Source: a virus (taxonomy: Duplodnaviria; Caudoviricetes). Taken from it: a DNA stretch of 64,000 nucleotides. Position numbers and translations under genes: made by a program. Within the stretch, counting starts at the first letter, position 1. Each line of letters opens with the position of its first letter. The stretch lies in the IMG/VR virus record IMGVR_UViG_3300021376_000006; one strand, given 5' to 3'. The notes under the pieces are model-generated. The model was not told the DNA's origin. It did not search any database and saw only the letters and a program-made list of their open reading frames with translations. This document shows, in pieces, positions 503-33,989 of this stretch.

Positions 503-814
503 CTAGGTAATAATACTTCCTATGGTAACAGGTTCAATACCTGTGGTTGTTTTGATATAATGTTTTTTCATTTGGTCAATACTGGGTGCATGCATAACTA
601 TATGTTGTTTTTGCAGTCGAACATTCACATCAGCATCGGCTGTGAACAGGCTTTGAATAAGTCCCATGCCTTGAGGGCTGGGCATCACAGTGCATGGTTT
701 AGAGATTTCTAAGTAATCGTCCGATATCAATTCAACTCGAGCAACAATTTCGTCCCCGGTTACCAATTTGAAACTCACAATATCCCCTGTGGAATAAATC
801 TTTGAAACTAACAT
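503..814 (-). CDS. Conserved phage protein, Sm-like fold probable
   Basis: GDIVSFKLVTGDEIVARV N-terminus resembles Sm-like proteins of T4-like phages; coupled to upstream gene. Confidence 0.5.
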   Translation of the reverse strand: MLVSKIYSTGDIVSFKLVTGDEIVARVELISDDYLEISKPCTVMPSPQGMGLIQSLFTADADVNVRLQKQHIVMHAPSIDQMKKHYIKTTTGIEPVTIGSIIT

Positions 815-1056
815 TAATTTTTTACCTTTTCAAAAAATTCATTTGGTTGTTTTTGAAGTCCATCGAAGCCGCCTGGAATAAGTTCATATCCATGAAATAT
901 CTGTGGCACACTTCGTAGACCTTTATCTACTAGCATCTGCCGCGATTCTGGGTCATACTCTATGTTAATTTCATTGTATTTGACGCCTTTGCTTTCTAAC
1001 AATTGTTTTGCTCTATCACAAAATGGGCAATTATTTTTTGAATAGATAGTAATCAT
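814..1056 (-). CDS. grx: Glutaredoxin (RNR reductant)
   Basis: CPFC active site, RSVPQIF motif, GGFD; downstream of nrdB. Confidence 0.92.
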   Translation of the reverse strand: MITIYSKNNCPFCDRAKQLLESKGVKYNEINIEYDPESRQMLVDKGLRSVPQIFHGYELIPGGFDGLQKQPNEFFEKVKN

Positions 1057-1154: not shown

Positions 1155-1853
1155 TTACGAGTTAAATTTTATTATTTTATCTTTAATTAATCTTGGATAA
1201 ACATAACTCCTCATCCAATTATCATATCCAACAGTCGAAGGATGAAAGTCATCTGATTCTAAACCATTGCAATTTAGCGATGTTTCATATATACAATCAT
1301 TATTTTCTGCAAAAATAAAGTTTTCAAAATCAATTTCCTTGCATATATTTTTTAATTCTTGATATTTATAAACTCCAAAATTTCTATTTTTTACATAATC
1401 TTTGTGGTTCCAATAATTTACGTAAGTCATGAAATAATATTTTATGCCTTTACTTTTTAAAAAATTTTGCAATTTAATCATTTCAAATAAACTTCTAATG
1501 CCTCTAGTTAACTCGTTTCCTTTTTTAATAAGTTCTTGGTAAATTGAATTTTGGCTTAGTACATCACCACTGAACTCAAAAAATATGTTATCTAAAGCTT
1601 GTCTTTTGTTGTCAACAACTAGTTCATCAACTATTAAATCTATTCTTTGTAGTCCGGACCACATAACTATTACACAATCATAATCAAAATTTGAATAAAT
1701 TAGTTCTAAAATTATACTGTCACTTATATATTGGTTACCTGCGCCAGGCATACCAAGATTACGAACAGCACCAAAGTCTTTTAACCACACAGGCCATCCG
1801 TTTTTTAGATTTTGTTGTCCGGTGAAACTACAACCTGAAGTTAAAAAAATCAT
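1155..1853 (-). CDS. SGNH/GDSL hydrolase-like (possible O-acyl esterase/transferase)
   Basis: GCSF block I, NLGMPGAGN block II, DDFHP block V. Confidence 0.6.
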   Translation of the reverse strand: MIFLTSGCSFTGQQNLKNGWPVWLKDFGAVRNLGMPGAGNQYISDSIILELIYSNFDYDCVIVMWSGLQRIDLIVDELVVDNKRQALDNIFFEFSGDVLSQNSIYQELIKKGNELTRGIRSLFEMIKLQNFLKSKGIKYYFMTYVNYWNHKDYVKNRNFGVYKYQELKNICKEIDFENFIFAENNDCIYETSLNCNGLESDDFHPSTVGYDNWMRSYVYPRLIKDKIIKFNS

Positions 1854-1879: not shown

Positions 1880-3007
1880 TTATAAACTAAATCCTCGAAA
1901 TGTATTATTATCAACATCTTGTTTCGTGCCACCAATTACATAACTTGAAATTTCTGTTTCTTGTGGAGCAACTTGCACTTCGGCGCCGGCAATCCATTTG
2001 GCTGTCCATGGTAAGGGATTTGATCCTGGTTTCATTCCACAGTCTAGTCCTACTGCTGTCATGCGCTTGCAGGTCAACCAATCTACATAGTGACACAATA
2101 ATTGTTGATTAAGCCCAATCATGGATCCGTTTTGAAACAAATAATGTGCCCAGGCTTTTTCTTGTGCTGCGGCGGCTAAAAACATTTGATTGCATTCTGC
2201 ACGAGTTTCTTCTTTTATAGAAGCATAAGAAGGATCATCCTGTGGCAACAATTTGAGAAGGGTCTGCGTTGACCCTAAATGAACATTTTCGTCTCGCGCA
2301 ATTAATTTGATAATCTTGGCATTGCCTTCCATTTTCTTCAGTTCAGCAAAGGCCCATGAGCAAGCAAAGCTGACATAAAATCTAATACCTTCAAGTGCAT
2401 TGACACTATTCAAACACAACCACAATTTCTTTTTGAGTTCATACATATCAACCGTGACGGCTTCTCCGTTAACGGTATGTTCTCCTACCCCTAATAGATT
2501 GTAGTATTGCACCGATTTGATTAAATCATCATAATATTTGCTAATGTCTCGGGCACAGTCTACAATTTCTTTTATGTCCGTGAGCTCATCAAATATAATG
2601 CTAGGGTCACTATAAACGTTCCTGATAATATGAGTATAGCTACGGCTATGAATCGTTTCATTAAAGGCCCAAGTTTGTATCCAAGTTTCCAGCTCAGGAA
2701 TAGTAGCGACGGGAAGAAAAGCAAGGTTAGGACTACGACCTTGAACACTATCCAATAGGATCTGTCGCTTAAGATTGCTTGTAAAAATATGTTGTTCATG
2801 TTCTGTTAGTTCTTTGAAATCCTTGCTGTCTCGAAGTACATCAACTTCTTCTGGTCGCCAAAAGAAACCTAATTGTTTATCTGTTAATTTGTCAAATTGT
2901 CTATATTTTAGTGTGTCGTATCTTTGAATAGGTTGTGCGCCTGACTCATCTAAAAAGGCCAATGCTTCGGTGTGTTTGTTCTTATTATTAATATTAAATA
3001 CGCTCAT
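1880..3007 (-). CDS. nrdB: Ribonucleotide reductase class Ia beta subunit
   Basis: [44 protein letters not shown]; E. coli-like C-terminal [12 protein letters not shown]. Confidence 0.97.
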
Positions 3008-4212
3008 TAAAATTGATCCTTCTCTGTGCTGTGTGCCATGGCCGCTGTGCTCTTTGCACCTACAGCTTCGCTAATTAAATCAAAATAACCAACGCCAACT
3101 TCTCGTTGATGTTTTACCGTTGTAAATCCACGATCCTGTGCTGCAAACTCGCGCTCCTGCATTTCTGAATATCCAGCCATACCACGTTGCCGGTATGCCT
3201 CTGCCAGCTCAAAGGTTGCAAGATTAACACTGTGGAATCCAGCTAGTGTAATAAACTGAAACCGGTATCCTAATGCACCAAGTTCACGTTGAAAGGTCTC
3301 GCATTCTTCTTCGCTCAGGAACTTTCTCCAATTAAAACTAGGAGAGCAGTTATAAGCAAGCATTTGATCAGGATAAACACTGTGAATAGCATCGGCAAAT
3401 TTTTTCGCCTGCTTAATATCCGGCATGCTCGTTTCAAACCAGAGTAGGTCCGCATACGGCGCATAGGCCAATCCTCTGGCGATACAGGCCTCAATTCCAT
3501 TTTGAAATTTGAAGAAGCCTTCTTCTGTTCGTTCATGTACAATAAAATCCTTATCTAATGGATCATGATCTGATGTAATCAGCGTGGCCGCTTCTGCATC
3601 TGTACGAGCCATAATCACGGTATCCACACCGGCTACATCTGCGGCCAGTCTTGCAGCATTTAGATTGCGTATGGCCTGGCTGGTTGGAATCAATACCTTG
3701 CCTCCAAGATGCCCGCACTTCTTTTCGCTGCTCAGTTGATCTTCAAAGTGTACACCTGCGGCACCTGCTTCAATCATGGCCATCATGAGTTCATATGCAT
3801 TGAGTGCGCCACCAAATCCTGCTTCAGCGTCTGCCACAATAGGTAAGAAATAATCCACATCTGTTCGACCTTCACTAAAGTCAATTTGATCTGCACGACG
3901 GAAAGCATTGTTTATACCCTGTACAACTCGAGGCACACTATCTACCGGATACAAACTTTGATCCGGATAGGTAGTATTTGCGGTATTGTTAGCTGCTGCA
4001 ACTTGCCAGCCGCTTAGATAAATTGCTTTTAGGCCTGCCTTGGCATGTTGTACAGCCTGTTGACCATTATAGGCACCTAGTGTATTGATGTAAGGTTCGT
4101 TTTGTAACAGGGTGCGTAACTTATCTGCGCCTAGTCTGGCCAAGGTATGGTCTACTCTAATAGATCCCTGCAATTTTCTTACAGTATCAAAACTGTAATT
4201 TCTTTTTTTCAT
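3007..4212 (-). CDS. aceA: Isocitrate lyase
   Basis: [29 protein letters not shown] catalytic motif, [18 protein letters not shown]; start moved to MKKRNY (4212) behind AGGA SD. Confidence 0.97.
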
Positions 4213-4220
4213 ATTTTTTC

Positions 4221-6524
4221 CTAGATTACGCAACTATCACAGTCTTCTTGACTTGTATATTCTTGTTCTTCAACTTGTCGAAATTCAACTAGTTTGTCTA
4301 TGTTTACTTCACCTTGTCCATCAAATGTATTAAAATAATATAGTTGTTTTAATCCATATTTGTAACACATTAATAAATGCTGTAGCATTTCGCTCATAGG
4401 AATCTTCTCGTCGTCGTAGTGTTGTGGATTATAACTGGTGTTTACGCTTATTCCTTGATCAATATACTTTTGCAATACCGCACAAATTTTGAGATAACCT
4501 TCGGGACTGATCTGATCCCAAAGTAACTCATACTTGTTTTTTAATCTACGATATTCAGGAACCACTTGCCTTAACGCACCGTGTTTACTTTGCTTCACGG
4601 ATACACATGATCGTGGTGGCTCTATACCATTAGTGGCATTTGAAATTTGTGCAGATGTTTCTGCAGGCATTAGTGCCATTAGTGTAGCGTTACGCTGACC
4701 TGTACGCTGAATCTGTTCGCGTAGCGATTGCCATGGCATCCGTTCTGTATATGGAACTAATTCATCTACCTCGCGCTTACGTGTATCAATTGGTAATACC
4801 CCTTTTGCACTCTTTAGATCTTGCCAACGAGTACAAGCACCTTGCTCTTCAGCGAGATCTGCAGAAGTCTTGATCAAATAATAAGACCAAGCTTCTGCAT
4901 ACTCGTCAACCAAGGCCAATGCCTTAGGATCACTATAACTGACATCATTTTTGGCCAAGAAGTAGGCAAAATTGATAATACCAATGCCCAAGGGTCTAAA
5001 TTCTTCCGTAGCCAATTGTGCTGCACGAATTGGATAGTTTTGATAACTTAATAAAGCATCCAATCCTCTTACCGCCAACCTACACATCTTCTCGAAGTCA
5101 TGTGGGCTTTTTACATTGCCCCAATTGATCGCTGATAGAGTACACAGGGCGATCCTACCATCCTCGTCGTTGACGTCTCGTAACGGTACAGTTGGTAAAT
5201 CTATTTCCGCGCAAAGATTACTCATCTTGATGGGTGCCACAGCTTCGTCAAACGGCGAGTGGGTATTGGCATGATCAACATTCTGCAAATATATTCTTCC
5301 CGTATCCTTGCGTTCCTGCATGAATCTACTAAACAAATCACTAGCCTTGAAAGTTTTCTTTCTCAGCTTGGTATTACGCTCTGCTCGCTCATAAAGCTCT
5401 TTGAATCGATCCTGATCGTTGAAAAAAGCAGAGTACAGCTCAGGTACATCATTGGGACTAAAACAGGTAATGTCGCCGCCTGTAATTAGTCTTTCATACA
5501 TCAACTTGTTAAATTGCACGCCGTAATCCATATGGCGCACACGGTTATCTTCTGTGCCTTTGTTGTTCTTTAATACAATCAGGTCCTCGATCTCAAGGTG
5601 CCAGATTGGGTAGTACAGTGTAGCGGCGCCATTGCGTACACCCCCTTGGCTACAACTCCGCGTTGCGCTTTGGAACAACTTGTAAAAAGGTATAACCCCG
5701 GTGTGGTAAGCATCTCCGTTTCGTATTGGGCTGCCAAGTGCTCGTATTCGACCTGCTCCAATTCCAATTCCGGCTTTTTGGCTGACGTACTTGACAATAC
5801 TGCTAGTAGTGGCATTGATACTGTCAAGACTGTCATCTGTTTCAATAAGCACACAGCTAGAGAATTGCTTTTGCGGTGTGCGAACACCGGCCATGACAGG
5901 AGTAGGCAAACTGATATCATGTAAACTGATAGCATCGTAGTAGTCCTTGATCCATTGTAATCGTGTTTCTTGGGGATACGTTTGAAACAGTGTAGCTGCT
6001 ATCAGTATATATGCCACTTGTGGAGTTTCGTATATTTCGTTGGTAACTCTATTTTGTACTAGATACTTGCCGCGCCATTGCTCCATGGCCACATAAGTAA
6101 AATGTTTATCTCTTTCATGGTGAACAAAACTGTTCAGACGATCCCATTCGCTAGCAGTATATGCGTCTATTAGACCTTGATCATAAAAATCCGATTCCAC
6201 ATTTTGCTGTACCAATTTAATCAACGGCCACGGACTGTAATCACCATATACCTGTTTGCGTAAATGATAATTAATTAGTCTTCCTGCTACATATTGATAA
6301 TTTGGAGTTTCTTCGCTTATAAGATCAGCAGCAGATTTAATAAGTGTTTCTTGGATATCTGCTGTTTTTATTCCGTTATAAAACTGTATGTGGCTTTTTA
6401 TCTCTACTTCGCTTGCGCTTACACCAGTGATTCCTTCGGTTGCCCAAAATACAACTCGGTGTAGTTTTTCTAAATCTAGTAATTCTTTACGTCCGTCTCT
6501 TTTAGTAACTTGAATTTGTGTCAT
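4221..6524 (-). CDS. nrdA: Ribonucleotide reductase class Ia alpha subunit with ATP cone
   Basis: N-terminal VTKRDG ATP cone, [27 protein letters not shown]-terminal CDSC; normal length, no intein. Confidence 0.97.
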
Positions 6525-6532
6525 TAACGCCT

Positions 6533-6985
6533 CTAGTATTGTTCTAATTTTAAGTCAACCGCTGTGTAGCGATATTTTAATTTTAATTCTTGATTAATGT
6601 GTTCTTTATTTACAATCTCGTCCTCAATCAAATTAAGAACATATTTTCCGCCACACAAGTATGCTATATGGTAATTGTACCTGGTCTTTCGATCGTAATA
6701 TATCCTAATTTCCGGTTCTAAGAATGATTTATGACCTGAAAGATGTAAAGTATACACGATTCCTAACACTTTAGCAAGGTCACAATAGGTATTTTCTTGT
6801 AACAACTGCCATGGATCTGGCCAATTGGATGGCGAGTCATAATCCAAGTAAAAAGGACTGAAAGGACAAGTATGCCATAATTCCAAAGTCGTATGTATGG
6901 CTTCAACTAAAGATAGATTGTCGAAATTTTGCCTAACAGACTTCCACCGCCGCAATCGCTCGCTGGTTGATAATTTGAACATCAA
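6533..6985 (-). CDS. Conserved hypothetical, transglutaminase-like Cys motif
   Basis: WPDPWQLL..NTYCDLAK resembles papain-like/transglutaminase catalytic Cys region; ATGA coupling. Confidence 0.4.
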   Translation of the reverse strand: MMFKLSTSERLRRWKSVRQNFDNLSLVEAIHTTLELWHTCPFSPFYLDYDSPSNWPDPWQLLQENTYCDLAKVLGIVYTLHLSGHKSFLEPEIRIYYDRKTRYNYHIAYLCGGKYVLNLIEDEIVNKEHINQELKLKYRYTAVDLKLEQY

Positions 6986-8352
6986 ATGAACTGTCTATAT
7001 GTGAATTGATATGTTGCGATTCCACTGCTTACAGAAACAAGAATGCAGTCGTTATTAGCTGATATATTAGCACCCACTCCGGTGGGCGTTTCAACGTAGC
7101 TGTCAGTATAAGTCAGTGTAGAGCCTTGTGTGGCCAGTGTCAATGATCCTATTCTAACATTACTATTACTTTTCAGTTGATAATCAACAATGCCTGCTGC
7201 GTTGCCAGCCGTGACAAAAACAGATGGTGTTGTTGTGATAGTAAATCGTTGGCTAGGATTTATTACACAGTTGCCTAAATATAAACCTGAATTCACTCTG
7301 TTGTCACTGTCGTAAAAGTTGCCAAGTTCAAAATTAAAATTACTTCCATTTGAAACAAAGCTTGTTGCTCCACCTATGTAATTGCCTATGCTTACGAACC
7401 CGGTACTAGTACCAAGATGAGCTGCTGTATTGCTCATATCAGTAAAACTACTGTTCATAACTCTTACTGATGTAATTGATGCACCGGTTAAAGCAATACT
7501 GTTGCCGCCACCAACAAACACACAGGTATCAAATGTAAGTTTACTAGATCCAATTACTGAACTTGCAACCGAAACAATGTTAGGAAAAAAACCTGCGCTT
7601 GCATTTGAAACAAACTTGCTGTTTGTTATTTTTACATTACTAGCACTGTCAATCACAACCAGCGGAGTTACAATGCTTGCATTACTGTTAAAGAAATTTA
7701 TGCCGTTAACTTCTATATCTATAGGATAAACAGCTGAACCACTTCCAATACTTGCTGCTGTCTGAAAAGAACTGTCGCATGTTGTAGCTACAGACTGATT
7801 GCCCATTGATTGTTTTATTACGGTACTAGATAATCCATCACCCACCAGTTTGGTGTATGGAGGAATTAAAAGGGTGCTGTTAATAGCGTATGTTCCGCCA
7901 GGAAAATAAATTGTTCGTCTGGCTCGAGGTTCAGTCGGACTGACTGTTGATTGGTAAATCTGTTGTATTGCACGATTAATTGCTACTGTATCATCTGTAG
8001 TACCATCACCAACTGCTCCAAAATCTTTTACATTTACAATGTCATCTAATTTTTGTTGGTAGGTCCTTACAGTAGGCGACATTATACTTGCACCGGTTTG
8101 TGCTGTATAACCTGCAGTATTGCCTACAAAAGTGTACGAAGAAAATGCAACGTTTGAAGTTAAATCATAAATGTCATGTTCTGTTAAAATCCGCGTGATG
8201 CCCACAATTGGGGCGCCTTCTGCCAGAGTGCCATTACCAATATATAATTGTCTTGTATCTACGCTCCAGCCAAGCTCAGCTGAGGCAAGTTGCGGAAGAT
8301 CTTGCTCCAATCCCCTGCGATGTTGAATTCTGCTTATCTGCGTAACGGCCAT
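6982..8352 (-). CDS. Tailspike/baseplate protein with Mtd-N-like head and pectate-lyase-like beta helix
   Basis: QISRIQHRRG...ELGWSVDTRQLYIGNG N-terminus; VNVKDFGAVGDGTTDDTVAINRAI and IYFPGGTY motifs; TAAATA box upstream. Confidence 0.8.
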   Translation of the reverse strand: MAVTQISRIQHRRGLEQDLPQLASAELGWSVDTRQLYIGNGTLAEGAPIVGITRILTEHDIYDLTSNVAFSSYTFVGNTAGYTAQTGASIMSPTVRTYQQKLDDIVNVKDFGAVGDGTTDDTVAINRAIQQIYQSTVSPTEPRARRTIYFPGGTYAINSTLLIPPYTKLVGDGLSSTVIKQSMGNQSVATTCDSSFQTAASIGSGSAVYPIDIEVNGINFFNSNASIVTPLVVIDSASNVKITNSKFVSNASAGFFPNIVSVASSVIGSSKLTFDTCVFVGGGNSIALTGASITSVRVMNSSFTDMSNTAAHLGTSTGFVSIGNYIGGATSFVSNGSNFNFELGNFYDSDNRVNSGLYLGNCVINPSQRFTITTTPSVFVTAGNAAGIVDYQLKSNSNVRIGSLTLATQGSTLTYTDSYVETPTGVGANISANNDCILVSVSSGIATYQFTYRQFI

Positions 8353-8376
8353 GCTAAATCCTCAATTATTGTGTAT

Positions 8377-9075
8377 TTAGCTTGTTAGGTAGTACAGTTC
8401 GACTCTACGCATCCATTGATCGCTCCAATACTGGAAATCCTTGGGTTCTAGCACAAATTCTTGATACTGGGGGGTTGAATTTTCATCAGCCGGTAGAGCA
8501 CACATAAGAATGACACCTGTAGTAATGCTTGTTCCGTGTGTGCCGTTGTGAGCCGCCGCATATGCCGCGAGCTGTAAAAAATAATCGTCGATCCATTCGC
8601 GTTTCTTAGGCTTGTTCGTTTGTTTAAAATCCATGATCGCAGGCTGTCCTCGCCAAACGCCCACACAGTCAGTAGTACCAGCATAAAGCCCAGAATAGTA
8701 TAAAGGCACCTCGCAACCCCAATATTCATCAACATTTCCTAATCCTTCCAATATAACTTGTGCTGCCATAAACCACGAGGGTTGAGCATAGGGATTAGCA
8801 GGAAAATCGCCTAAGTCATCGTGCTTGATATACCGTTCTAGATAGGTATGCATTCTGGTACCACGATTGGCAGCTTCGGTTGTGATCTGTTGCGCTCGTT
8901 CATGACCTACACGATCTTTCCACTCGCGCAATGCTTGTCGGGCTTCTTCGGGCTTAGTACGATCCAGTATGGTTGTTACACTGGGTACCTTGCTACCATC
9001 AGGAAGACAATAGTGTCGCTTGCCCTCAACAGTGGTCCTGTTAAGGGGCTTGTAGTCAAATTTTTGAATAATCAT
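8377..9075 (-). CDS. PD-(D/E)XK exonuclease (RecB/Cas4-like phage exonuclease)
   Basis: PSVTTIL, RGTRMH, EVPL, AGTTDC, MDFKQ, QLAAY motifs. Confidence 0.85.
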   Translation of the reverse strand: MIIQKFDYKPLNRTTVEGKRHYCLPDGSKVPSVTTILDRTKPEEARQALREWKDRVGHERAQQITTEAANRGTRMHTYLERYIKHDDLGDFPANPYAQPSWFMAAQVILEGLGNVDEYWGCEVPLYYSGLYAGTTDCVGVWRGQPAIMDFKQTNKPKKREWIDDYFLQLAAYAAAHNGTHGTSITTGVILMCALPADENSTPQYQEFVLEPKDFQYWSDQWMRRVELYYLTS

Positions 9076-10075
9076 CTAAAATTTTATTAATTTGAGCAGC
9101 TAACAATTTATCATAATTGGTACTTGTTAATAAATTAAAATTGTGCTCAACAATTGATTGTATTTGATTTAGTATTTTATCTTGATCTTGATTACATAAA
9201 AAAACAACTTGTTTCATTACTGCTGTAAATCTTTGCTTTTCGTTGACTATAGAATCATAGGTCTCGTCTATTATAATATTAAAAGTTTGAAAACCTAATT
9301 CTTTTAAAAAATTGAGATAACCAGGACTTGAAAAAACTACAAACAATCGTTTGGCCAAAATTGGTCTTGCAATCTTTTCGCTTACAAGAATAAGATCGTT
9401 TTGACTGACAGTTTCTGAAACCATTGTGTAAGCAGTTTGTGTGTAAAGTTGTACAGGAACATACTTATAGTTAACTATTTCTACATCATTGTACAAAGCT
9501 GTAGCATCAAATCTATTTTGGATATCATCATACCAATAAGTAGGATTTTTATTATGTCCTGCGTAAGTAAATATTATTTTATCTTCAAGTAATTCCCTTG
9601 GTATCAACTCGTATATAAGATCTCTAGGAGGTCTATTAGATCCCAACAAACAATCAAAATATTTAGACTTTGGTTGATTGGGTGAAATATCATTTAAAAG
9701 GTTGTTTATTCCTAAATTATTATAAGTAGCAGCTATCTCCCGCATCCAAGCGTTCCAAAACAAATTTTTTGTTTCATATGTTTTACAGTATTTTCCTGGT
9801 AAGACCCATATAACATTGCGAAACAATTCAAGGTTGATATGATTTGTCCAATTTGGATGATCTGCAAAATAAAAAACTAAGGTAGAATGTGTATTTAAAT
9901 TGTATAATATAGATGGAAATTCACTTCCGCACTGAAAAATACATGATACTTTAAATTTCTTGTTTGAAGATATGAATTCGTCTAAATCATGCGTTATTTC
10001 GAATTTTTTTATATCTACGTAGTCATCCTTAAACCATCGTTCAAAGAAGAATTTTTGAGAATAATATAACAACAT
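9056..10075 (-). CDS. Glycosyltransferase-like protein (GT10-like C-terminus)
   Basis: VSETVS..LVSEKIARPI..GFQTF..IIDETYD motif; paralog of 39079..40149. Confidence 0.45.
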   Translation of the reverse strand: MLLYYSQKFFFERWFKDDYVDIKKFEITHDLDEFISSNKKFKVSCIFQCGSEFPSILYNLNTHSTLVFYFADHPNWTNHINLELFRNVIWVLPGKYCKTYETKNLFWNAWMREIAATYNNLGINNLLNDISPNQPKSKYFDCLLGSNRPPRDLIYELIPRELLEDKIIFTYAGHNKNPTYWYDDIQNRFDATALYNDVEIVNYKYVPVQLYTQTAYTMVSETVSQNDLILVSEKIARPILAKRLFVVFSSPGYLNFLKELGFQTFNIIIDETYDSIVNEKQRFTAVMKQVVFLCNQDQDKILNQIQSIVEHNFNLLTSTNYDKLLAAQINKILDDYSKI

Positions 10076-10395
10076 TATATACGGAAGCTTTCGCCGCAGC
10101 CGCAGCGATCACGTTCCTTGCTGTTTATAAAATCAAAGCCTTCGTTAAGACCTTGACGTTTGTAATCCATGGTCATGCCATCAATGTAAGGAAGATCCTT
10201 GGGATTGACAAATACACTAACACCATTTGATTCATACTTGACCTGTTCATCTGTGGGTTTGTCAATGTATTCTAATTTGTATGCCAATCCAGAACAGCCT
10301 GTGGTTCTTACTCCAATGAGAATACCAGCACCATGACCTCTACGGTCAAGCTGTTGTCTTACTTTTTTTGCTGCCAGTTCAGTTAGCTGTATCAT
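10075..10395 (-). CDS. iscA: Fe-S cluster carrier IscA
   Basis: TTGCSGLAY, DGMTMDY, RCGCGESF; start moved to MIQLTE. Confidence 0.93.
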   Translation of the reverse strand: MIQLTELAAKKVRQQLDRRGHGAGILIGVRTTGCSGLAYKLEYIDKPTDEQVKYESNGVSVFVNPKDLPYIDGMTMDYKRQGLNEGFDFINSKERDRCGCGESFRI

Positions 10396-10765
10396 TTTTT
10401 GATCGATAGTCTGCCAGTGCTGCTTTGATAGCATCTTCGGCTAAAATACTACAGTGGATTTTAACCGGAGGTAACGCGAGTTCTTCCGCAATGTCCGAAT
10501 TCTTAATTGAATCCGCTTCATCAAGACTTTTTCCTTTAAGCCACGTAGTGACCAACGACGAGCTTGCTATAGCCGAACCGCAACCGTATGTTTTAAATTT
10601 GGCATCGGTGATAACATTGTCTTCTACTCGAATTTGAAGTTGCAAAACATCGCCGCATGCTGGCGCACCAACTAAACCAGTGCCTACGCTTGGGTCTGTT
10701 TTATCTAGTTTTCCAACATTTCTTGGATTTTCATAATGATCCAAAACCTGACCTGAATAAGCCAT
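10379..10765 (-). CDS. iscU: Fe-S cluster scaffold IscU
   Basis: YS.QVLDHYENPRNVG, GAPACGD, KTYGCGSAIASSS, LPPVKIHCS; all ligands intact. Confidence 0.96.
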   Translation of the reverse strand: MAYSGQVLDHYENPRNVGKLDKTDPSVGTGLVGAPACGDVLQLQIRVEDNVITDAKFKTYGCGSAIASSSLVTTWLKGKSLDEADSIKNSDIAEELALPPVKIHCSILAEDAIKAALADYRSKNDTAN

Positions 10766-10782
10766 ACATTCTCCTTGGAGAT

Positions 10783-10811
10783 ATTATAAACTTTTTAAGA
10801 TCTTTTTGCAA
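10783..10811 (-). promoter_or_regulatory. sigma70-type promoter TTGCAA-17-TATAAT for iscU-iscA
   Basis: Read on minus strand; followed by AAGGAG SD and iscU ATG. Confidence 0.6.
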
Positions 10812-11220
10812 GTGCCGACTTTGCCATCGAGTCAACTGTACGCTCAGGAGCTGTTTTTACACCTTTTGAATCAGTAACCCCGGGTTCTTCATCTGCATCA
10901 TCTGCAAAAGGTTCAAGATATACATACTTGACTCCAGAAAGATCGTCTTTGATATCTTTGATTAGATTTTTAACGTTTTGATTGTTCTTGTAAGCGTCCA
11001 ACAAATTTTCCAAATTAAACTGTTGTTCACCTGTGCCTTGAACCAAGTTGATCAGACTGTCTACTCGTATGCGAGGTTGAATGTGGGTATCGTGAGCTCT
11101 ATGACGTAAGAATTCAAGTGTGGTGAGCAAATTTGCATCACCACGACCGTCTGCCTCATCTTCGAGCACTTCATCCAAGTATTGATCTAAGTTCTCTGAA
11201 ATAACTTCACGAATACGCAT
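10795..11220 (-). CDS. Acidic hypothetical protein, putative head-associated
   Basis: N-terminus MRIREVISE; coupled to neighbours. Confidence 0.6.
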   Translation of the reverse strand: MRIREVISENLDQYLDEVLEDEADGRGDANLLTTLEFLRHRAHDTHIQPRIRVDSLINLVQGTGEQQFNLENLLDAYKNNQNVKNLIKDIKDDLSGVKYVYLEPFADDADEEPGVTDSKGVKTAPERTVDSMAKSALAKRS

Positions 11221-11903
11221 CAGCGTTTTTCTCTGCCCACTACATTAGGGCCTGCTGCTGCATCTGTTGCAGCAAAATTATCAGTCTCCATGTTGCCAGT
11301 CATGTCTGTTGCAGGCATTTGGTCTGGCATAGGGCCACCAGGTGCAGGCATGTCCATTCCCATCGGAGCGGCCACTTGTTCACCGGCTAAAGCTCTTGCC
11401 GCATCATCGGCTGTGCTTCTTGCTGATCCTAATTGTTGTACCATATTAGCTAATAGCGGCTCAACTGCACCTTTAAATGCCTCAGCCTGTTCCATGCCAA
11501 TTTGATCACGGATAGTGTCTAGCAGTGCAGGCATTTGCTCGTTTTGCATTTTGCTTACATCTTCCAGCATGTCTTGGATACTATCAACCATGTCCTTGGC
11601 AGCCAAAATAGCTTGACTCTTGCCCATTTCGCTTTCCATGATCAGCTGTTGCTTGTTTTCGATCATCCAACGGTGTAGACCTTCACGGATCATCAGTAAT
11701 TCCATGTACTTTGGATTTTGTTCTGCTACGTGGACTCCGTGACTGTGCTTGATTTTTTCAAGATTTTCGGTTAAGCCTTGAGCTAGCACATAAGCTTTTG
11801 GAAAGTTTAAATTGTCATAATCAATTTTGACGCCAAAGCGGCTTTCCATAACTTTGTTGATTTTTTTAGCGGAAGGCTTGACGCCCATTTCTGTTAATCT
11901 CAT
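11220..11903 (-). CDS. Helical hypothetical protein, putative prohead core/scaffold-like
   Basis: MRLTE N-terminus, coiled-coil middle, Met/Pro-rich low-complexity tail. Confidence 0.55.
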   Translation of the reverse strand: MRLTEMGVKPSAKKINKVMESRFGVKIDYDNLNFPKAYVLAQGLTENLEKIKHSHGVHVAEQNPKYMELLMIREGLHRWMIENKQQLIMESEMGKSQAILAAKDMVDSIQDMLEDVSKMQNEQMPALLDTIRDQIGMEQAEAFKGAVEPLLANMVQQLGSARSTADDAARALAGEQVAAPMGMDMPAPGGPMPDQMPATDMTGNMETDNFAATDAAAGPNVVGREKR

Positions 11904-31553: not shown

Positions 31554-32729
31554 TTAGAACAATGCTTGATAACGCCAGAAATCGCTGGCTGCTGCAACAC
31601 CACTGCCTGGTTCAACTTTTATGCCTGTATCCAACATGGCCATTTCGGCTCCGGCAATTGCTGCCATAAGATGCACTTCATTCATATCACCCAGGTGACC
31701 AATACGGAATAACTTGCCTGCCATTCGGCTTAAGCCAGCACCCAAGCTCAAGTTATATCTCTTGTATGCTCGTGCAATTACATCAGCACCATTGATGCCA
31801 TTGGGCACCATGATGGCACTTACTGTATCCGAATACCATTTTGGCTCTTGAGCACATAGTTCTAGGCCCCAACCTTCTTGTACTGCTGCTCTTACACCTG
31901 CGGCCAGATAGTGATGTCGGCGTATGATGTTGTCGAGGCCTTCTTCGTTAATCATTTTTAACGATTCAATTAAGCCATATAACAAACTTAGTGCTGGTGT
32001 GTATGGATAGTAGCCTGTGCTAGTACTTTTAAGCATGTCATCTAAATCAAAGTATGCTCGTTTTAGTTTGGCTGTATGACGCTGCTCCAGTGCCTTTGGA
32101 CTAGCACATAGTATACCCAGACCAGCTGGTAGCATCAGACCTTTCTGTGAACCTGATACAGCCATGTCTACTCCCCAGTCGTCAAATCTCAAATCAATTG
32201 AGGCAAGACTAGATACACAATCTACAAATAGTAATGCCGGATGATTAGCGTTGTCCAATACTCTACGAACTCCTTCAATATCAGAAGTCACTCCGGTCGC
32301 TGTTTCATTATGGCAAGCCAATACCGCTTTGATTGAATGATTGGTGTCTGTTTCTAATCTATCAAGATATAGATCCAATGGAACGCCGGTGCCCCACTCA
32401 CAATCTATAACTTCTACATCTAAACCTAATTTGACGCACATTTCAATCCATAAGTGACTGAACTGTCCAAACCTTGCAGCAAGAACATGGTCTCCGGGTG
32501 ATAGTGTATTGGTGAGTGCTGCTTCCCAACAGCCGGTGCCCGAACTGGGAAACACAAAAGGTGTTCCTGCGTCAGTGCGGAACACCCGTTTTAGTCCTTG
32601 GGTAATTTGATCGGTAATCGCGGGGAAGTCTGGTGATCTATGGTCTTCCATACTTGCAACCATAGCTCTCAATACACGATCTGGTATATTGGTAGGTCCA
32701 GGCACAAATAAAAAATTCCGTCCAGCCAT
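31554..32729 (-). CDS. sgaA: Serine/alanine-glyoxylate aminotransferase (class V PLP)
   Basis: FLFVPGPTN, SSGTGCWEAA, HNETATGV, DCVSSL, GSQKGLMLP PLP lysine, FRIGHLG. Confidence 0.92.
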   Translation of the reverse strand: MAGRNFLFVPGPTNIPDRVLRAMVASMEDHRSPDFPAITDQITQGLKRVFRTDAGTPFVFPSSGTGCWEAALTNTLSPGDHVLAARFGQFSHLWIEMCVKLGLDVEVIDCEWGTGVPLDLYLDRLETDTNHSIKAVLACHNETATGVTSDIEGVRRVLDNANHPALLFVDCVSSLASIDLRFDDWGVDMAVSGSQKGLMLPAGLGILCASPKALEQRHTAKLKRAYFDLDDMLKSTSTGYYPYTPALSLLYGLIESLKMINEEGLDNIIRRHHYLAAGVRAAVQEGWGLELCAQEPKWYSDTVSAIMVPNGINGADVIARAYKRYNLSLGAGLSRMAGKLFRIGHLGDMNEVHLMAAIAGAEMAMLDTGIKVEPGSGVAAASDFWRYQALF

Positions 32730-32803: not shown

Positions 32804-33022
32804 TTATTTTAAAACTTTTCGAGTAAACCGCCAAATTGGACCAATTTCAGGATGATTACGATCACCGCCTACAGCTAGTTGTGCATCTAACGGAGCACCA
32901 TAACTGTAATAATTTACATAATCGGCAATTTTTCTGTTACGAGTTCTAATCAAACAAAGTCCCGCATCGTTGGTAACCATGAAGTGGGATATTCCGTCGT
33001 CATCTCGGTCAATGAAGAGCAT
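32804..33022 (-). CDS. Small hypothetical protein
   Basis: ORF overlapping the GGCT 3' end; exact start uncertain. Confidence 0.45.
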   Translation of the reverse strand: MLFIDRDDDGISHFMVTNDAGLCLIRTRNRKIADYVNYYSYGAPLDAQLAVGGDRNHPEIGPIWRFTRKVLK

Positions 33023-33426
33023 ACCATATTTATTGCCTGGTCAATTTGATCAACAGGCACACCATTTTGTTCGTAACCTTCGCGTACCATTTCTAAATAG
33101 CCCACACCAGGTTGTTGTAAGTAGGTTTGATCCGTCATTTGATAAGTTATTGCAAAGACAAAACTTTTGCCGGTGTTGACTTTTACAAGAAATCTAGTGT
33201 AATAATATGGATACCCTTCGAGGGTATCAAGAGCTTGTAAATCTTGCATGGATATATCCCAAAGCACCCCATGGCAGATATTGCCCGGTGATCGGGCAAT
33301 ATCTGCATGAGTACGAAATACCAATTCATGATCGTCAATCCAAGCAGGTCCAACACATTCGGCCGTTGGACAGCGTCGATTCATTTCATCCTTATTGGTA
33401 TTCATCCCATAAGCAAAGTATTTCAT
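32950..33426 (-). CDS. Gamma-glutamylcyclotransferase (AIG2-like) family protein
   Basis: YFAYGMN, ADI, GVLWDI, LDTLEG..YY, AITY; start MKYFAYG with ATGA overlap. Confidence 0.85.
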   Translation of the reverse strand: MKYFAYGMNTNKDEMNRRCPTAECVGPAWIDDHELVFRTHADIARSPGNICHGVLWDISMQDLQALDTLEGYPYYYTRFLVKVNTGKSFVFAITYQMTDQTYLQQPGVGYLEMVREGYEQNGVPVDQIDQAINMVCSSLTEMTTEYPTSWLPTMRDFV

Positions 33427-33989
33427 ACTGGTATTCCAAAATGTTGATAATGTTTTTCCAGAGTCCACGCATGTAAATCATTTATTGATTGTCCATTATA
33501 GGTTTCAATTTCTGTAGTAAACACTTGAGTGTATCTATCAAAAAAATGATACACACTGGGTGTTTTACTAGCCCAGCCTGCTTTTTTTAAAGCCACATGA
33601 TTTACTTTTTTAATCAGACAGGTCGGCGGATTCATTGCTTGAATAACAGTGAGCACGCCTTGAATCAGCATATCGCGAATTACTTTTTGTGGTATCACGT
33701 GCTCAAAGTCGTAGTCCTTTTTTTGTAAACCTTTTTCTCGATAGTGAGCTTTTATGTTACCGGCAATATTATAATCATGCGATCGCCTCAACGCATCATC
33801 AATTCGATCTCGAACCAGTCTGGCTGTTTGATTCATTTCTGTCAACCCGCTATACTCTTTGAGTAAACGAGTCAGTTCACGACTTATTGACTCCGTGGTT
33901 TGATCATAAGCACCTTGATCTCTTTTGACCTTGCGATATTCTACGGGTTGGTAAGATTCAACCAGTGACTGAAATTTGGATTTAGCCAT
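33423..33989 (-). CDS. His-Me finger (HNH-like) nuclease candidate
   Basis: FEHVIPQ followed by PTCLIKKVNH, like EHIxP of DUF1524/GmrSD C-terminal domains. Confidence 0.5.
   Translation of the reverse strand: MAKSKFQSLVESYQPVEYRKVKRDQGAYDQTTESISRELTRLLKEYSGLTEMNQTARLVRDRIDDALRRSHDYNIAGNIKAHYREKGLQKKDYDFEHVIPQKVIRDMLIQGVLTVIQAMNPPTCLIKKVNHVALKKAGWASKTPSVYHFFDRYTQVFTTEIETYNGQSINDLHAWTLEKHYQHFGIPV

Follow-up and report, generated by a model that had tools for sequence, protein, structure and literature searches.

Gene content and junctions of the locus

The stretch of DNA analysed here (the window, 64,000 nt in all) comes from a giant lake-water phage and carries phage helicase, exonuclease, baseplate and tail-spike-like genes, and thus provides a bona fide phage context. 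On its minus strand, a tightly packed string of genes forms a putative operon in the order orf150, nrdA, isocitrate lyase (ICL), nrdB, orf232 and glutaredoxin. The nrdA gene (4221..6524) encodes a 767-aa class Ia ribonucleotide reductase (RNR) alpha subunit with ATP-cone, Ribonuc_red_lgN and lgC Pfam domains (NCBIfam NF006578, 1180 bits; cut-off 813), and nrdB (1880..3007) encodes the 375-aa beta subunit (NF006576, 533 bits; cut-off 346). Between them lies an N-terminally short phage form of ICL (P0001, 401 aa, 3007..4212), recognized through NCBIfam, Pfam and structure matches. All three genes are on the minus strand, in the order nrdA-ICL-nrdB given in the original prediction. Both RNR subunits match their equivalog models above cut-off and a glutaredoxin gene is located nearby (814..1056, minus strand; Pfam Glutaredoxin, 69 bits), as is expected of a class Ia RNR operon. 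This glutaredoxin is the likely reductant of the RNR. Its homologues come after nrdB in relatives, and in 52 of 80 loci the next gene after the module belongs to an 80-aa cluster at the corresponding position.

Two further minus-strand genes of the string have no assigned function. Immediately upstream of nrdA, orf150 (6533..6985) ends 8 nt ahead of the nrdA ATG, and its position is occupied by a cluster of approximately 144 aa in 32 loci. Downstream of nrdB, orf232 (1155..1853) gave no match in Pfam and PHROG searches; a homologue detected by tblastn occupies the gap between nrdA and nrdB in six related loci. The position of orf232 shifts between genomes.

Direct reading of the sequence shows that the genes flanking ICL are joined to it closely on both sides. 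The nrdA stop codon TAG (4223-4221) overlaps an AGGA ribosome-binding site, and the 8-nt spacer featuring this site leads directly to the ICL ATG at 4212 (junction 4213..4223, minus strand). The same arrangement, with the stop codon inside the Shine-Dalgarno sequence and a spacer of 7-9 nt, is present in most relatives of both RNR lineages described below. At the other end, the ICL stop codon TAA (3009-3007) and the nrdB ATG (3007-3005) share one nucleotide at 3007, giving the overlap TAATG (3005..3009, minus strand) that had been predicted, and an AAGGA sequence lies 9 nt upstream of the nrdB ATG within the final ICL codons. A 1-nt overlap of ICL with whichever gene is next is found in 24 of 80 related loci. 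Within the window the TAATG junction is nothing special, as at least eight same-strand gene pairs likewise share a boundary base.

Identity and descent of the isocitrate lyase

The ICL protein scores above the cut-offs of NCBIfam NF011645 (684 bits; curated cut-off 562), TIGR01346 (553 bits; cut-off 276) and the Pfam ICL family PF00463 (351 bits; cut-off 26). Its closest solved structure is 6lrp (569 bits over residues 4-401), and it is 61-67% identical to bacterial AceA proteins over its full length. The KKCGH catalytic motif, said to be intact in the original prediction, was indeed located at residues 164-168, where it aligns with Salmonella AceA residues 193-197. All of the metal- and substrate-binding motifs are present and are identical or near-identical to those of nine bacterial ICLs; motifs are assigned to ligands as in structural work on the M. 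tuberculosis and E. coli enzymes. The gene at 3007-4212 is a genuine ICL and not a methylisocitrate lyase, with prpB models scoring far under their cut-offs. ICL is a homotetramer that cleaves isocitrate into succinate and glyoxylate, and the phage enzyme is predicted to be catalytically competent for this reaction.

With 401 aa, the phage ICL is shorter than the ten compared bacterial ICLs (424-441 aa). It lacks the approximately 21-35 N-terminal residues that precede the R.Y motif in the bacterial enzymes, with the alignment starting at Salmonella residue 22. The W..NPRW segment is also missing, while the C-terminal STE..QF tail is retained. The short N-terminus is considered real because the only possible upstream extension of the reading frame is at most seven codons (to a TTG at 4233). 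The missing N-terminal segment is typical of bacterial ICLs, and is not defining for the family.

The window ICL falls in a clade made up solely of phage sequences, at least 81 of them together with that of the GenBank entry Phage C48C1. A branch with 99% SH-aLRT support separates these 81 copies and Phage C48C1 from nine bacterial ICLs of five phyla. All clade members have the start MKKRNY or MKKRDY in common, which aligns with Salmonella AceA residue 22, and the catalytic motifs, including KKCGH and ITLAGFH, are invariant across the 81 phage copies, as are 247 of the 401 alignment columns. Saturation of synonymous sites (pS of at least 0.70) extends even to the comparison with the nearest relative at 92% amino acid identity, and the median dN/dS of 0.043 reveals purifying selection. 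At 34.8%, the GC3 of the gene is near the mean for the window (31.5 ± 6.1) and reflects phage-like codon usage. This host-type gene in a phage genome, with phage-like GC3 and dN/dS of about 0.04, therefore has the features of an auxiliary metabolic gene, and it is among the most strongly conserved genes of its neighbourhood. Taken together, the tree and the shared start describe an old, phage-specific clade without the bacterial N-terminal segment.

Phylogeny had been proposed as a means of naming the bacterial donor. It set the clade apart, but a donor could not be named because the clade branches deeply and lies at roughly the same distance from all five bacterial phyla, whose ICLs (from plasmid-collection records) are all 61-67% identical to the phage protein. 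A pattern scan of GTDB returned just one relative, at 61%; the scan is a weak negative because its patterns were exact 8-mers of this protein. Megablast against GenBank phages matched only short stretches of RNR genes in cyanophages and Vibrio phages, no PHROGs family matched the window ICL, and the LD12/SAR11 literature gave no link to the window phage that could serve as a host clue.

Recent ICL transfer among phages was considered in view of amino acid identities of 85-92% beside RNR identities of 40-49%, and was rejected: nucleotide identity is 70-78% and synonymous sites are saturated. In the free ICL tree, the ICLs of the other RNR lineage and the window's clade come out as sister groups. 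The AU test does not reject a topology congruent with that of the RNR genes (p = 0.48, delta lnL 0.6), nor, thus, co-divergence, and an ancient transfer of ICL between the two RNR lineages may have occurred.

Linkage to ribonucleotide reductase and expression

Either nrdA or nrdB adjoins ICL in 64 of the 81 clade members, and nrdA is the gene directly upstream in 48 of 80 loci. This linkage spans two RNR lineages, the other being 40-49% (about 45%) identical to the RNR of the window. The nrdA-ICL-nrdB order recurs in contigs from many different metagenomes, which answers the question of whether related phages share the arrangement and also rules out an assembly chimera at the join. Of the 81 ICL copies, 17 have loci devoid of RNR genes; four longer contigs from this group place the RNR roughly 20-165 kb from ICL.

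The site between nrdA and nrdB was surveyed in 78 relatives whose nrdA is 75-94% identical to that of the window. The two RNR genes are directly adjacent in 59 of them, 13-77 nt apart (mostly 13-25), while the remaining 19 hold inserts: orf232 in six, PGDYG in three, ICL in three and other genes in seven. At least one of the alternative inserts is of a kind that could not be identified. On a 697-kb contig, the slot holds an aldolase, NifU and a NUMOD3 endonuclease-type gene, and ICL comes after nrdB. The placement had been described as unusual for an auxiliary metabolic gene. This is true of RNR operons, most of which have no insert, but not of the ICL clade, most of whose members are RNR-linked. 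From these gene orders, ICL is best described as an accessory gene, of the auxiliary metabolic type, that occupies a variable slot within a phage class Ia RNR operon.

Because of the tight packing of the string, ICL is most likely co-transcribed with nrdA and nrdB; it would then have a ribosome-binding site of its own for translation, and its stop codon is the one that the nrdB start overlaps. Promoter and terminator scans were uninformative and at chance level, with 35 promoter-like sites against 28 ± 5 expected and no terminator-like site on the coding strand, and no TATAAATA late box was found upstream of the ICL operon, the count of this box being at chance level. Several of the RNR-unlinked ICL copies have an ATAAATA late-type box of their own. 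The proposal that the phage co-expresses ICL with dNTP synthesis is thus plausible here, but coupling to RNR is not obligatory, since related phages keep ICL elsewhere and in some cases behind an ATAAATA box.

Fate of glyoxylate and comparison with known systems

Malate synthase, reported as absent in the original prediction, was not found by Pfam and PHROG scans in 20 window ORFs of 339-794 aa. These include all ORFs of at least 450 aa, each of which was assigned to a family other than malate synthase or the isocitrate dehydrogenase kinase/phosphatase AceK. PF01274 was likewise not found in two ICL phages that are 97-100% complete, while the same search was positive in six control genomes. 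With no malate synthase among the scanned ORFs of the window, glyoxylate would have to pass to other enzymes. One candidate consumer of this ICL product, as judged by homology, is a 391-aa class V glyoxylate aminotransferase (P0124, 31554..32729, minus strand) encoded 27 kb from ICL. It matches the NCBIfam model for BhcA, the aspartate-glyoxylate aminotransferase of the beta-hydroxyaspartate cycle, with 590 bits, under the cut-off of 650, and its closest solved structure is a serine-glyoxylate aminotransferase (6pk1, 473 bits).

Genes near ICL in relatives point in a similar direction. Serine hydroxymethyltransferase (SHMT) adjoins ICL in one locus (L068) and lies 2.7 kb off in another (L075); ICL is followed by a class IV aminotransferase in L044 and by a DadA-like dehydrogenase in L052. 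The aminotransferase and SHMT neighbours are hints of a glyoxylate-to-glycine route. Both the aminotransferase and SHMT are absent from the two near-complete ICL phages, and no ICL was found in the available 63% of the genome of a 223-kb relative that has the aminotransferase. An obligate ICL-aminotransferase pair was rejected with positive controls, and by this gene distribution the glycine route does not form a conserved module.

These observations can be arranged into the following explanation. During infection, host isocitrate would be split by the phage ICL into succinate and glyoxylate. The glyoxylate could then be aminated to glycine, either by the phage serine/aspartate-glyoxylate aminotransferase or by host enzymes, and the glycine would contribute to purine rings and provide one-carbon units for dTMP; alternatively, glyoxylate could be consumed by a host malate synthase. 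The explanation as a whole, in which a competent ICL of an old phage clade sits as an accessory gene in a variable RNR slot, is one we hold to be quite probable. Amination to glycine by phage or host enzymes is the fate of glyoxylate that we prefer, although only tentatively. That ICL is no shunt enzyme at all, and is instead the first step of a phage route from isocitrate through glyoxylate to glycine, purine atoms and one-carbon units for dTMP, is a more doubtful proposal. If true, it would explain why ICL has stayed in a dNTP-synthesis operon across deeply diverged phages, and why aminotransferases and SHMT, not malate synthase, are found beside it in relatives.

Several other readings must be weighed against this one. 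Phage ICL genes are commonly read as boosters of the glyoxylate shunt, whereby the phage ICL and a host malate synthase would bypass the CO2-releasing steps of the TCA cycle, conserve carbon and supply succinate and malate. This is the published interpretation of viral aceA/aceB, marine and soil huge phages do have malate synthase adjoining ICL, and the window enzyme is itself a canonical ICL. However, malate synthase was found neither among the large ORFs of the window nor in the two near-complete relatives, and the enzymes that accompany ICL in relatives work on amino acids and one-carbon units as opposed to acetyl-CoA. Furthermore, in the Huge Phage Genome Collection preprint, where isocitrate lyases of huge phages are read as auxiliary metabolic genes, the phages reported to have malate synthase with ICL are all marine, soil or plant-related, with none from freshwater (10.1101/2025.02.27.640493). 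A classical shunt role here is rather unlikely. It is nearly an even bet, if slightly short of one, that the placement of ICL between the two RNR genes is without functional meaning, the slot being hypervariable and tolerant of insertion and ICL being kept there by inheritance. Close relatives carry several alternative inserts or, mostly, none; orf232 differs in position between genomes, and an endonuclease-type gene occupies the slot on the 697-kb contig; in other phages ICL works from other positions and promoters; and the AU test is compatible with simple co-divergence. Nevertheless, the linkage is strong from the ICL side, persists in two RNR lineages that are about 55% diverged with saturated synonymous sites, and comes with tight stop/start junctions that are kept whichever gene is next.

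The remaining alternatives are less probable. In some bacteria, iron limitation and oxidative stress induce the glyoxylate shunt. Diversion of isocitrate might lower NADH production and the oxidative stress of respiration, or else the need for iron, at a time when the class Ia RNR, which depends on oxygen and iron, is active. The NifU-type gene in the RNR slot of a relative fits such a redox or iron-sparing role, yet ICL is also found away from RNR, and we regard this role as improbable. An enzyme specific for methylisocitrate or some other substrate is less probable still. In the phage clade, the LLWFET motif beside the active-site Trp has F in place of C/M/W/L, and some ICLs, such as M. tuberculosis ICL1, cleave methylisocitrate as well, so a side activity of this kind may exist. 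Against a methylisocitrate lyase, the signature is KKCGH and not KRCGH, the substrate-binding motifs are all as in bacterial ICLs, and the two prpB models give only 110 bits (TIGR02317; cut-off 354) and 92 bits (NF008455; cut-off 353). Finally, an assembly chimera or decaying pseudogene can practically be dismissed given the recurrence of the gene order, the intact frame, the codon usage and the strength of purifying selection.

If the route from glyoxylate to glycine is real, it would give large freshwater phages a distinct means of drawing TCA-cycle carbon into nucleotide synthesis, and viral aceA counts in metagenomes would have to be read differently. Whether or not it is, the nrdA-nrdB junction offers a well-sampled natural slot for accessory-gene gain and loss in T4-like giant phages.

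In its catalytic and substrate motifs, KKCGH and the C-terminal tail, the phage ICL resembles the bacterial short-form AceA (E. coli and Salmonella AceA, M. tuberculosis ICL1), but it lacks the N-terminal 21-35 residues and is embedded in an RNR operon. In Arthrobacter, Streptomyces and Salmonella, aceB adjoins aceA, whereas neither aceB nor aceK is found beside the phage ICL. Among viruses, an aceBA operon is described in a marine T4-like environmental viral genome by Nishimura 2017 (PMC5332604). Phage ICLs without malate synthase are already published, and the freshwater window phage matches the habitat pattern of the preprint (10.1101/2025.02.27.640493). Neither the passages located by term searches in these two sources nor a literature search on the same terms mentions that ICL lies in an RNR operon, that its N-terminal truncation is shared, or how strong the purifying selection is. 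The closest GenBank counterpart discussed here, a 'hypothetical protein' (WJE87928) of the 156-kb Phage C48C1 (OQ984149, Kyanoviridae), is 64% identical and begins with the same truncation (MKKRDYS), and the tree places it as sister to the metagenomic clade; unlike the window ICL, it is flanked by hypothetical genes and not by RNR.

SAR11 bacteria possess an ICL-to-glycine route. The window is comparable to this route, and to the serine/aspartate-glyoxylate aminotransferases SGAT and BhcA, in having ICL and a glyoxylate aminotransferase with no malate synthase found, although in the phage 27 kb separate the two genes, which do not form a conserved pair. In T4-like phages, mobile endonuclease genes, mobE among them, land in the nrdA-nrdB intergenic region. 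The region is likewise variable among the close relatives of the window, and one related contig carries the NUMOD3 gene there; in the window itself, however, the slot contains no endonuclease gene and its cargo is a metabolic enzyme.

Identity of the isocitrate lyase and its phage-only clade

By every sequence test available, the window gene at 3007-4212 (-) is a genuine isocitrate lyase (ICL). Its 401-aa product passes two NCBI ICL equivalog models (684 bits, cut-off 562; 553 bits, cut-off 276) and scores only 110 bits with the methylisocitrate lyase model, far under the cut-off of 354, which rejects that identity and bears out the original prediction of a true ICL. Solved bacterial ICLs align end to end with the phage protein (best match 6lrp, 569 bits). 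Its identity to aceA is 61-67% in Actinomycetota, Bacteroidota, Bacillota, and Alpha-, Beta- and Gammaproteobacteria, and it has all the ICL motifs of the bacterial enzymes, ITLAGFH among them. Unlike bacterial AceA, it begins at the R.Y motif, with residue 1 corresponding to residue 22 of Salmonella AceA, and it is shorter than the bacterial ICLs compared (424-441 aa). An upstream extension of the reading frame could add at most 7 codons.

Relatives of this ICL are encoded on 189 stretches in IMG/VR; the 80 of these that were compared show 85-92% identity, and almost every one has a length of 401 aa. In a large protein collection, relatives fill more than 120 clusters, 87-92% identical and 401-422 aa in length (401-402 in almost all). 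In a quick tree search, a branch with 99% SH-aLRT support parts the phage ICLs and that of Phage C48C1 from nine bacterial ICLs of five phyla. The C48C1 protein, annotated only as "hypothetical" in GenBank, is 64% identical and has the MKKRDY start of the clade; PHROGs held no family matching the window ICL. Recent spread as the cause of the high protein identity is ruled out by the DNA identity to the closest relative, only 78%, and by the saturation of synonymous sites. Constraint is strong: dN/dS has a median of 0.043, and an alignment of the 81 copies (the window ICL and 80 relatives) shows no variation in 247 of 401 columns or in any catalytic motif. GC3 is phage-like. Judged from its sequence, the window gene is a selected phage ICL. 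The naming of a bacterial donor, which the original prediction had proposed, was attempted by comparison with bacterial aceA, and none could be named.

The ribonucleotide reductase module and its variable slot

The window belongs to the genome of a large T4-like phage, and its phage-type genes code for helicases (DnaB-type and others), an exonuclease, a baseplate protein and a tail spike of the pectate-lyase type. The ribonucleotide reductase (RNR) genes form a tightly packed string on the minus strand: orf150 (6533-6985, product without assignment), nrdA (4221-6524, class Ia alpha subunit), ICL, nrdB (1880-3007, class Ia beta subunit), orf232 (1155-1853, product without assignment and no family match) and grx (814-1056, glutaredoxin). 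The window sequence confirms both the nrdA-ICL-nrdB order and the TAATG overlap of the ICL stop with the nrdB start that had been predicted, and an AGGA ribosome-binding site 8 nt 5' of the ICL ATG includes the nrdA stop TAG. Because 1-nt overlaps of this kind occur at no fewer than eight gene junctions in the window, TAATG is the normal style of this genome and not a special device. Promoter and terminator scans of the window were uninformative, and we therefore infer co-transcription of ICL with the RNR genes from packing alone. Upstream, a 456-aa tail-spike-type protein with Mtd_N and pectate-lyase-like domains (6982-8352, -) overlaps orf150 by 4 nt. Downstream of the module lies an 86-aa PAAR-motif protein (233-493, -), whose position is kept on the 697-kb contig L186.

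The gene order recurs in related phages, as the original prediction had proposed to check: nrdA-ICL-nrdB is found in 25 of the 81 copies, nrdA-ICL-x-nrdB in 27 and nrdA-nrdB-ICL in 8; four more are RNR-linked and cut by a contig end, and 17 have no RNR gene in the locus. The gene directly upstream of ICL is nrdA in 48 of 80 loci. Linkage is present in two RNR lineages, one with nrdA 75-94% identical to that of the window and the other with only 40-49%. In the lineage to which the window belongs, the identities of ICL, nrdA and nrdB move in step (92/93/94%, 81/84/83%, 75/76/74%). In an unconstrained ICL tree the second lineage nests beside the window's clade, and a topology that follows the RNR genes was not rejected (AU test, p = 0.48), so that old vertical inheritance with many losses and old transfer are indistinguishable.

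Seen from the RNR side, 59 of 78 relatives (nrdA 75-94% identical to that of the window) have no gene between nrdA and nrdB, only a gap of 13-77 nt (mostly 13-25). The remaining 19 have an insert there: orf232 (6), a PGDYG-domain gene (3), ICL (3) or something else (7). In three contigs whose nrdA shows 92-94% identity, PGDYG takes the place of the window's ICL. In the window orf232 lies 3' of nrdB, in six contigs between nrdA and nrdB (L113, L135, L142, L144, L146, L157) and in L021 between nrdA and ICL; these positions suggest a small gene that moves about the module. The JGI contig L186 (697,313 bp) carries nrdA, a class II aldolase, NifU_N, a NUMOD3 endonuclease-type gene, nrdB, ICL and glutaredoxin at 4697-11463. 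The varied contents of the slot mark ICL as an accessory gene, housed at a hypervariable position within a conserved module for nucleotide metabolism. On L186, PAAR lies further downstream of glutaredoxin and an HNH_3 gene upstream of the module; if this contig is from a phage, the phage is very large.

The proposed co-expression of ICL with dNTP synthesis agrees with the tight packing in the window. Coupling is not obligatory: in four longer contigs (two 97-100% complete) ICL lacks an RNR neighbour and RNR lies about 20-165 kb away. Several ICL copies without the RNR link (L064, L066, L070, L074, L080) have a conserved late-type CCATAAATACT box about 30-40 nt upstream of ICL, resembling the T4 late promoter, which suggests late expression there, in contrast to the window, where ICL would be expressed with the operon. 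In phages without the link, a truncated DesA-type desaturase of 233-242 aa often lies 3' of ICL and starts within 2 nt of it (L069:7209-7910, L045:7209-7937, L033:6442-7152, +). The L069 copy scores 380 bits (cut-off 400) with a model of 385 positions, and its cluster occurs in 14 loci.

Fate of glyoxylate

No malate synthase was found among the window ORFs scanned, in line with the original prediction, nor in two near-complete ICL phages, where controls worked. The classical route would pass through host malate synthase. A route from glyoxylate to glycine is suggested by genes 3' of ICL in some relatives, which point to amino-acid and one-carbon chemistry. We regard the two routes as about equally probable, each less likely than not. 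The window encodes an intact class V glyoxylate aminotransferase (31554-32729, -; 590 bits with the aspartate-glyoxylate aminotransferase BhcA model, below the cut-off of 650). Among solved structures its best match is a serine-glyoxylate aminotransferase (473 bits), and it has relatives on 16 IMG/VR contigs at 76-87% identity. Elsewhere, a bona fide serine hydroxymethyltransferase (SHMT) lies directly 3' of ICL (L068:2597-3742, +; 539 bits, cut-off 335) or 2.7 kb from it (L075), and other 3' genes are a class IV aminotransferase that passes no curated cut-off (L044:2101-2973, +) and a DadA-like FAD D-amino-acid dehydrogenase (L052:7206-8381, +; 465 bits, cut-off 494). Support for the glycine route is patchy across ICL phages: the two near-complete ICL phages lack both glyoxylate aminotransferase and SHMT, and a 223-kb relative with the aminotransferase has no ICL in the examined part of its genome.

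A GGACT/AIG2-like gene (32950-33468) adjoins the window aminotransferase. On L075, a 167-kb IMG/VR contig classed as viral, a full-length benzoyl-CoA 2,3-epoxidase BoxB lies directly 3' of ICL (7219-8634, +; 875 bits, cut-off 499), which is odd for a phage.

Comparison with known viral isocitrate lyases

Phage ICL as a kind of gene is already known. Earlier work describes viral aceA in ocean viromes (PMC4053976) and an aceBA operon in the environmental genome of a marine T4-like virus (PMC5332604). A preprint on huge phages reports 98 ICL genes, with malate synthase confined to phages from marine, soil and plant-related sources (10.1101/2025.02.27.640493). A literature search found no published description of ICL placed in an RNR operon. 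What is new here is the phage-only clade of truncated ICLs, the protein's very strong constraint, the repeated occurrence of ICL at a variable slot within the RNR operon, and the company of glycine-related enzymes, not malate synthase. The habitat pattern that the huge-phage preprint gives for malate synthase agrees with the absence of this enzyme from the window ORFs scanned and from the two near-complete relatives.
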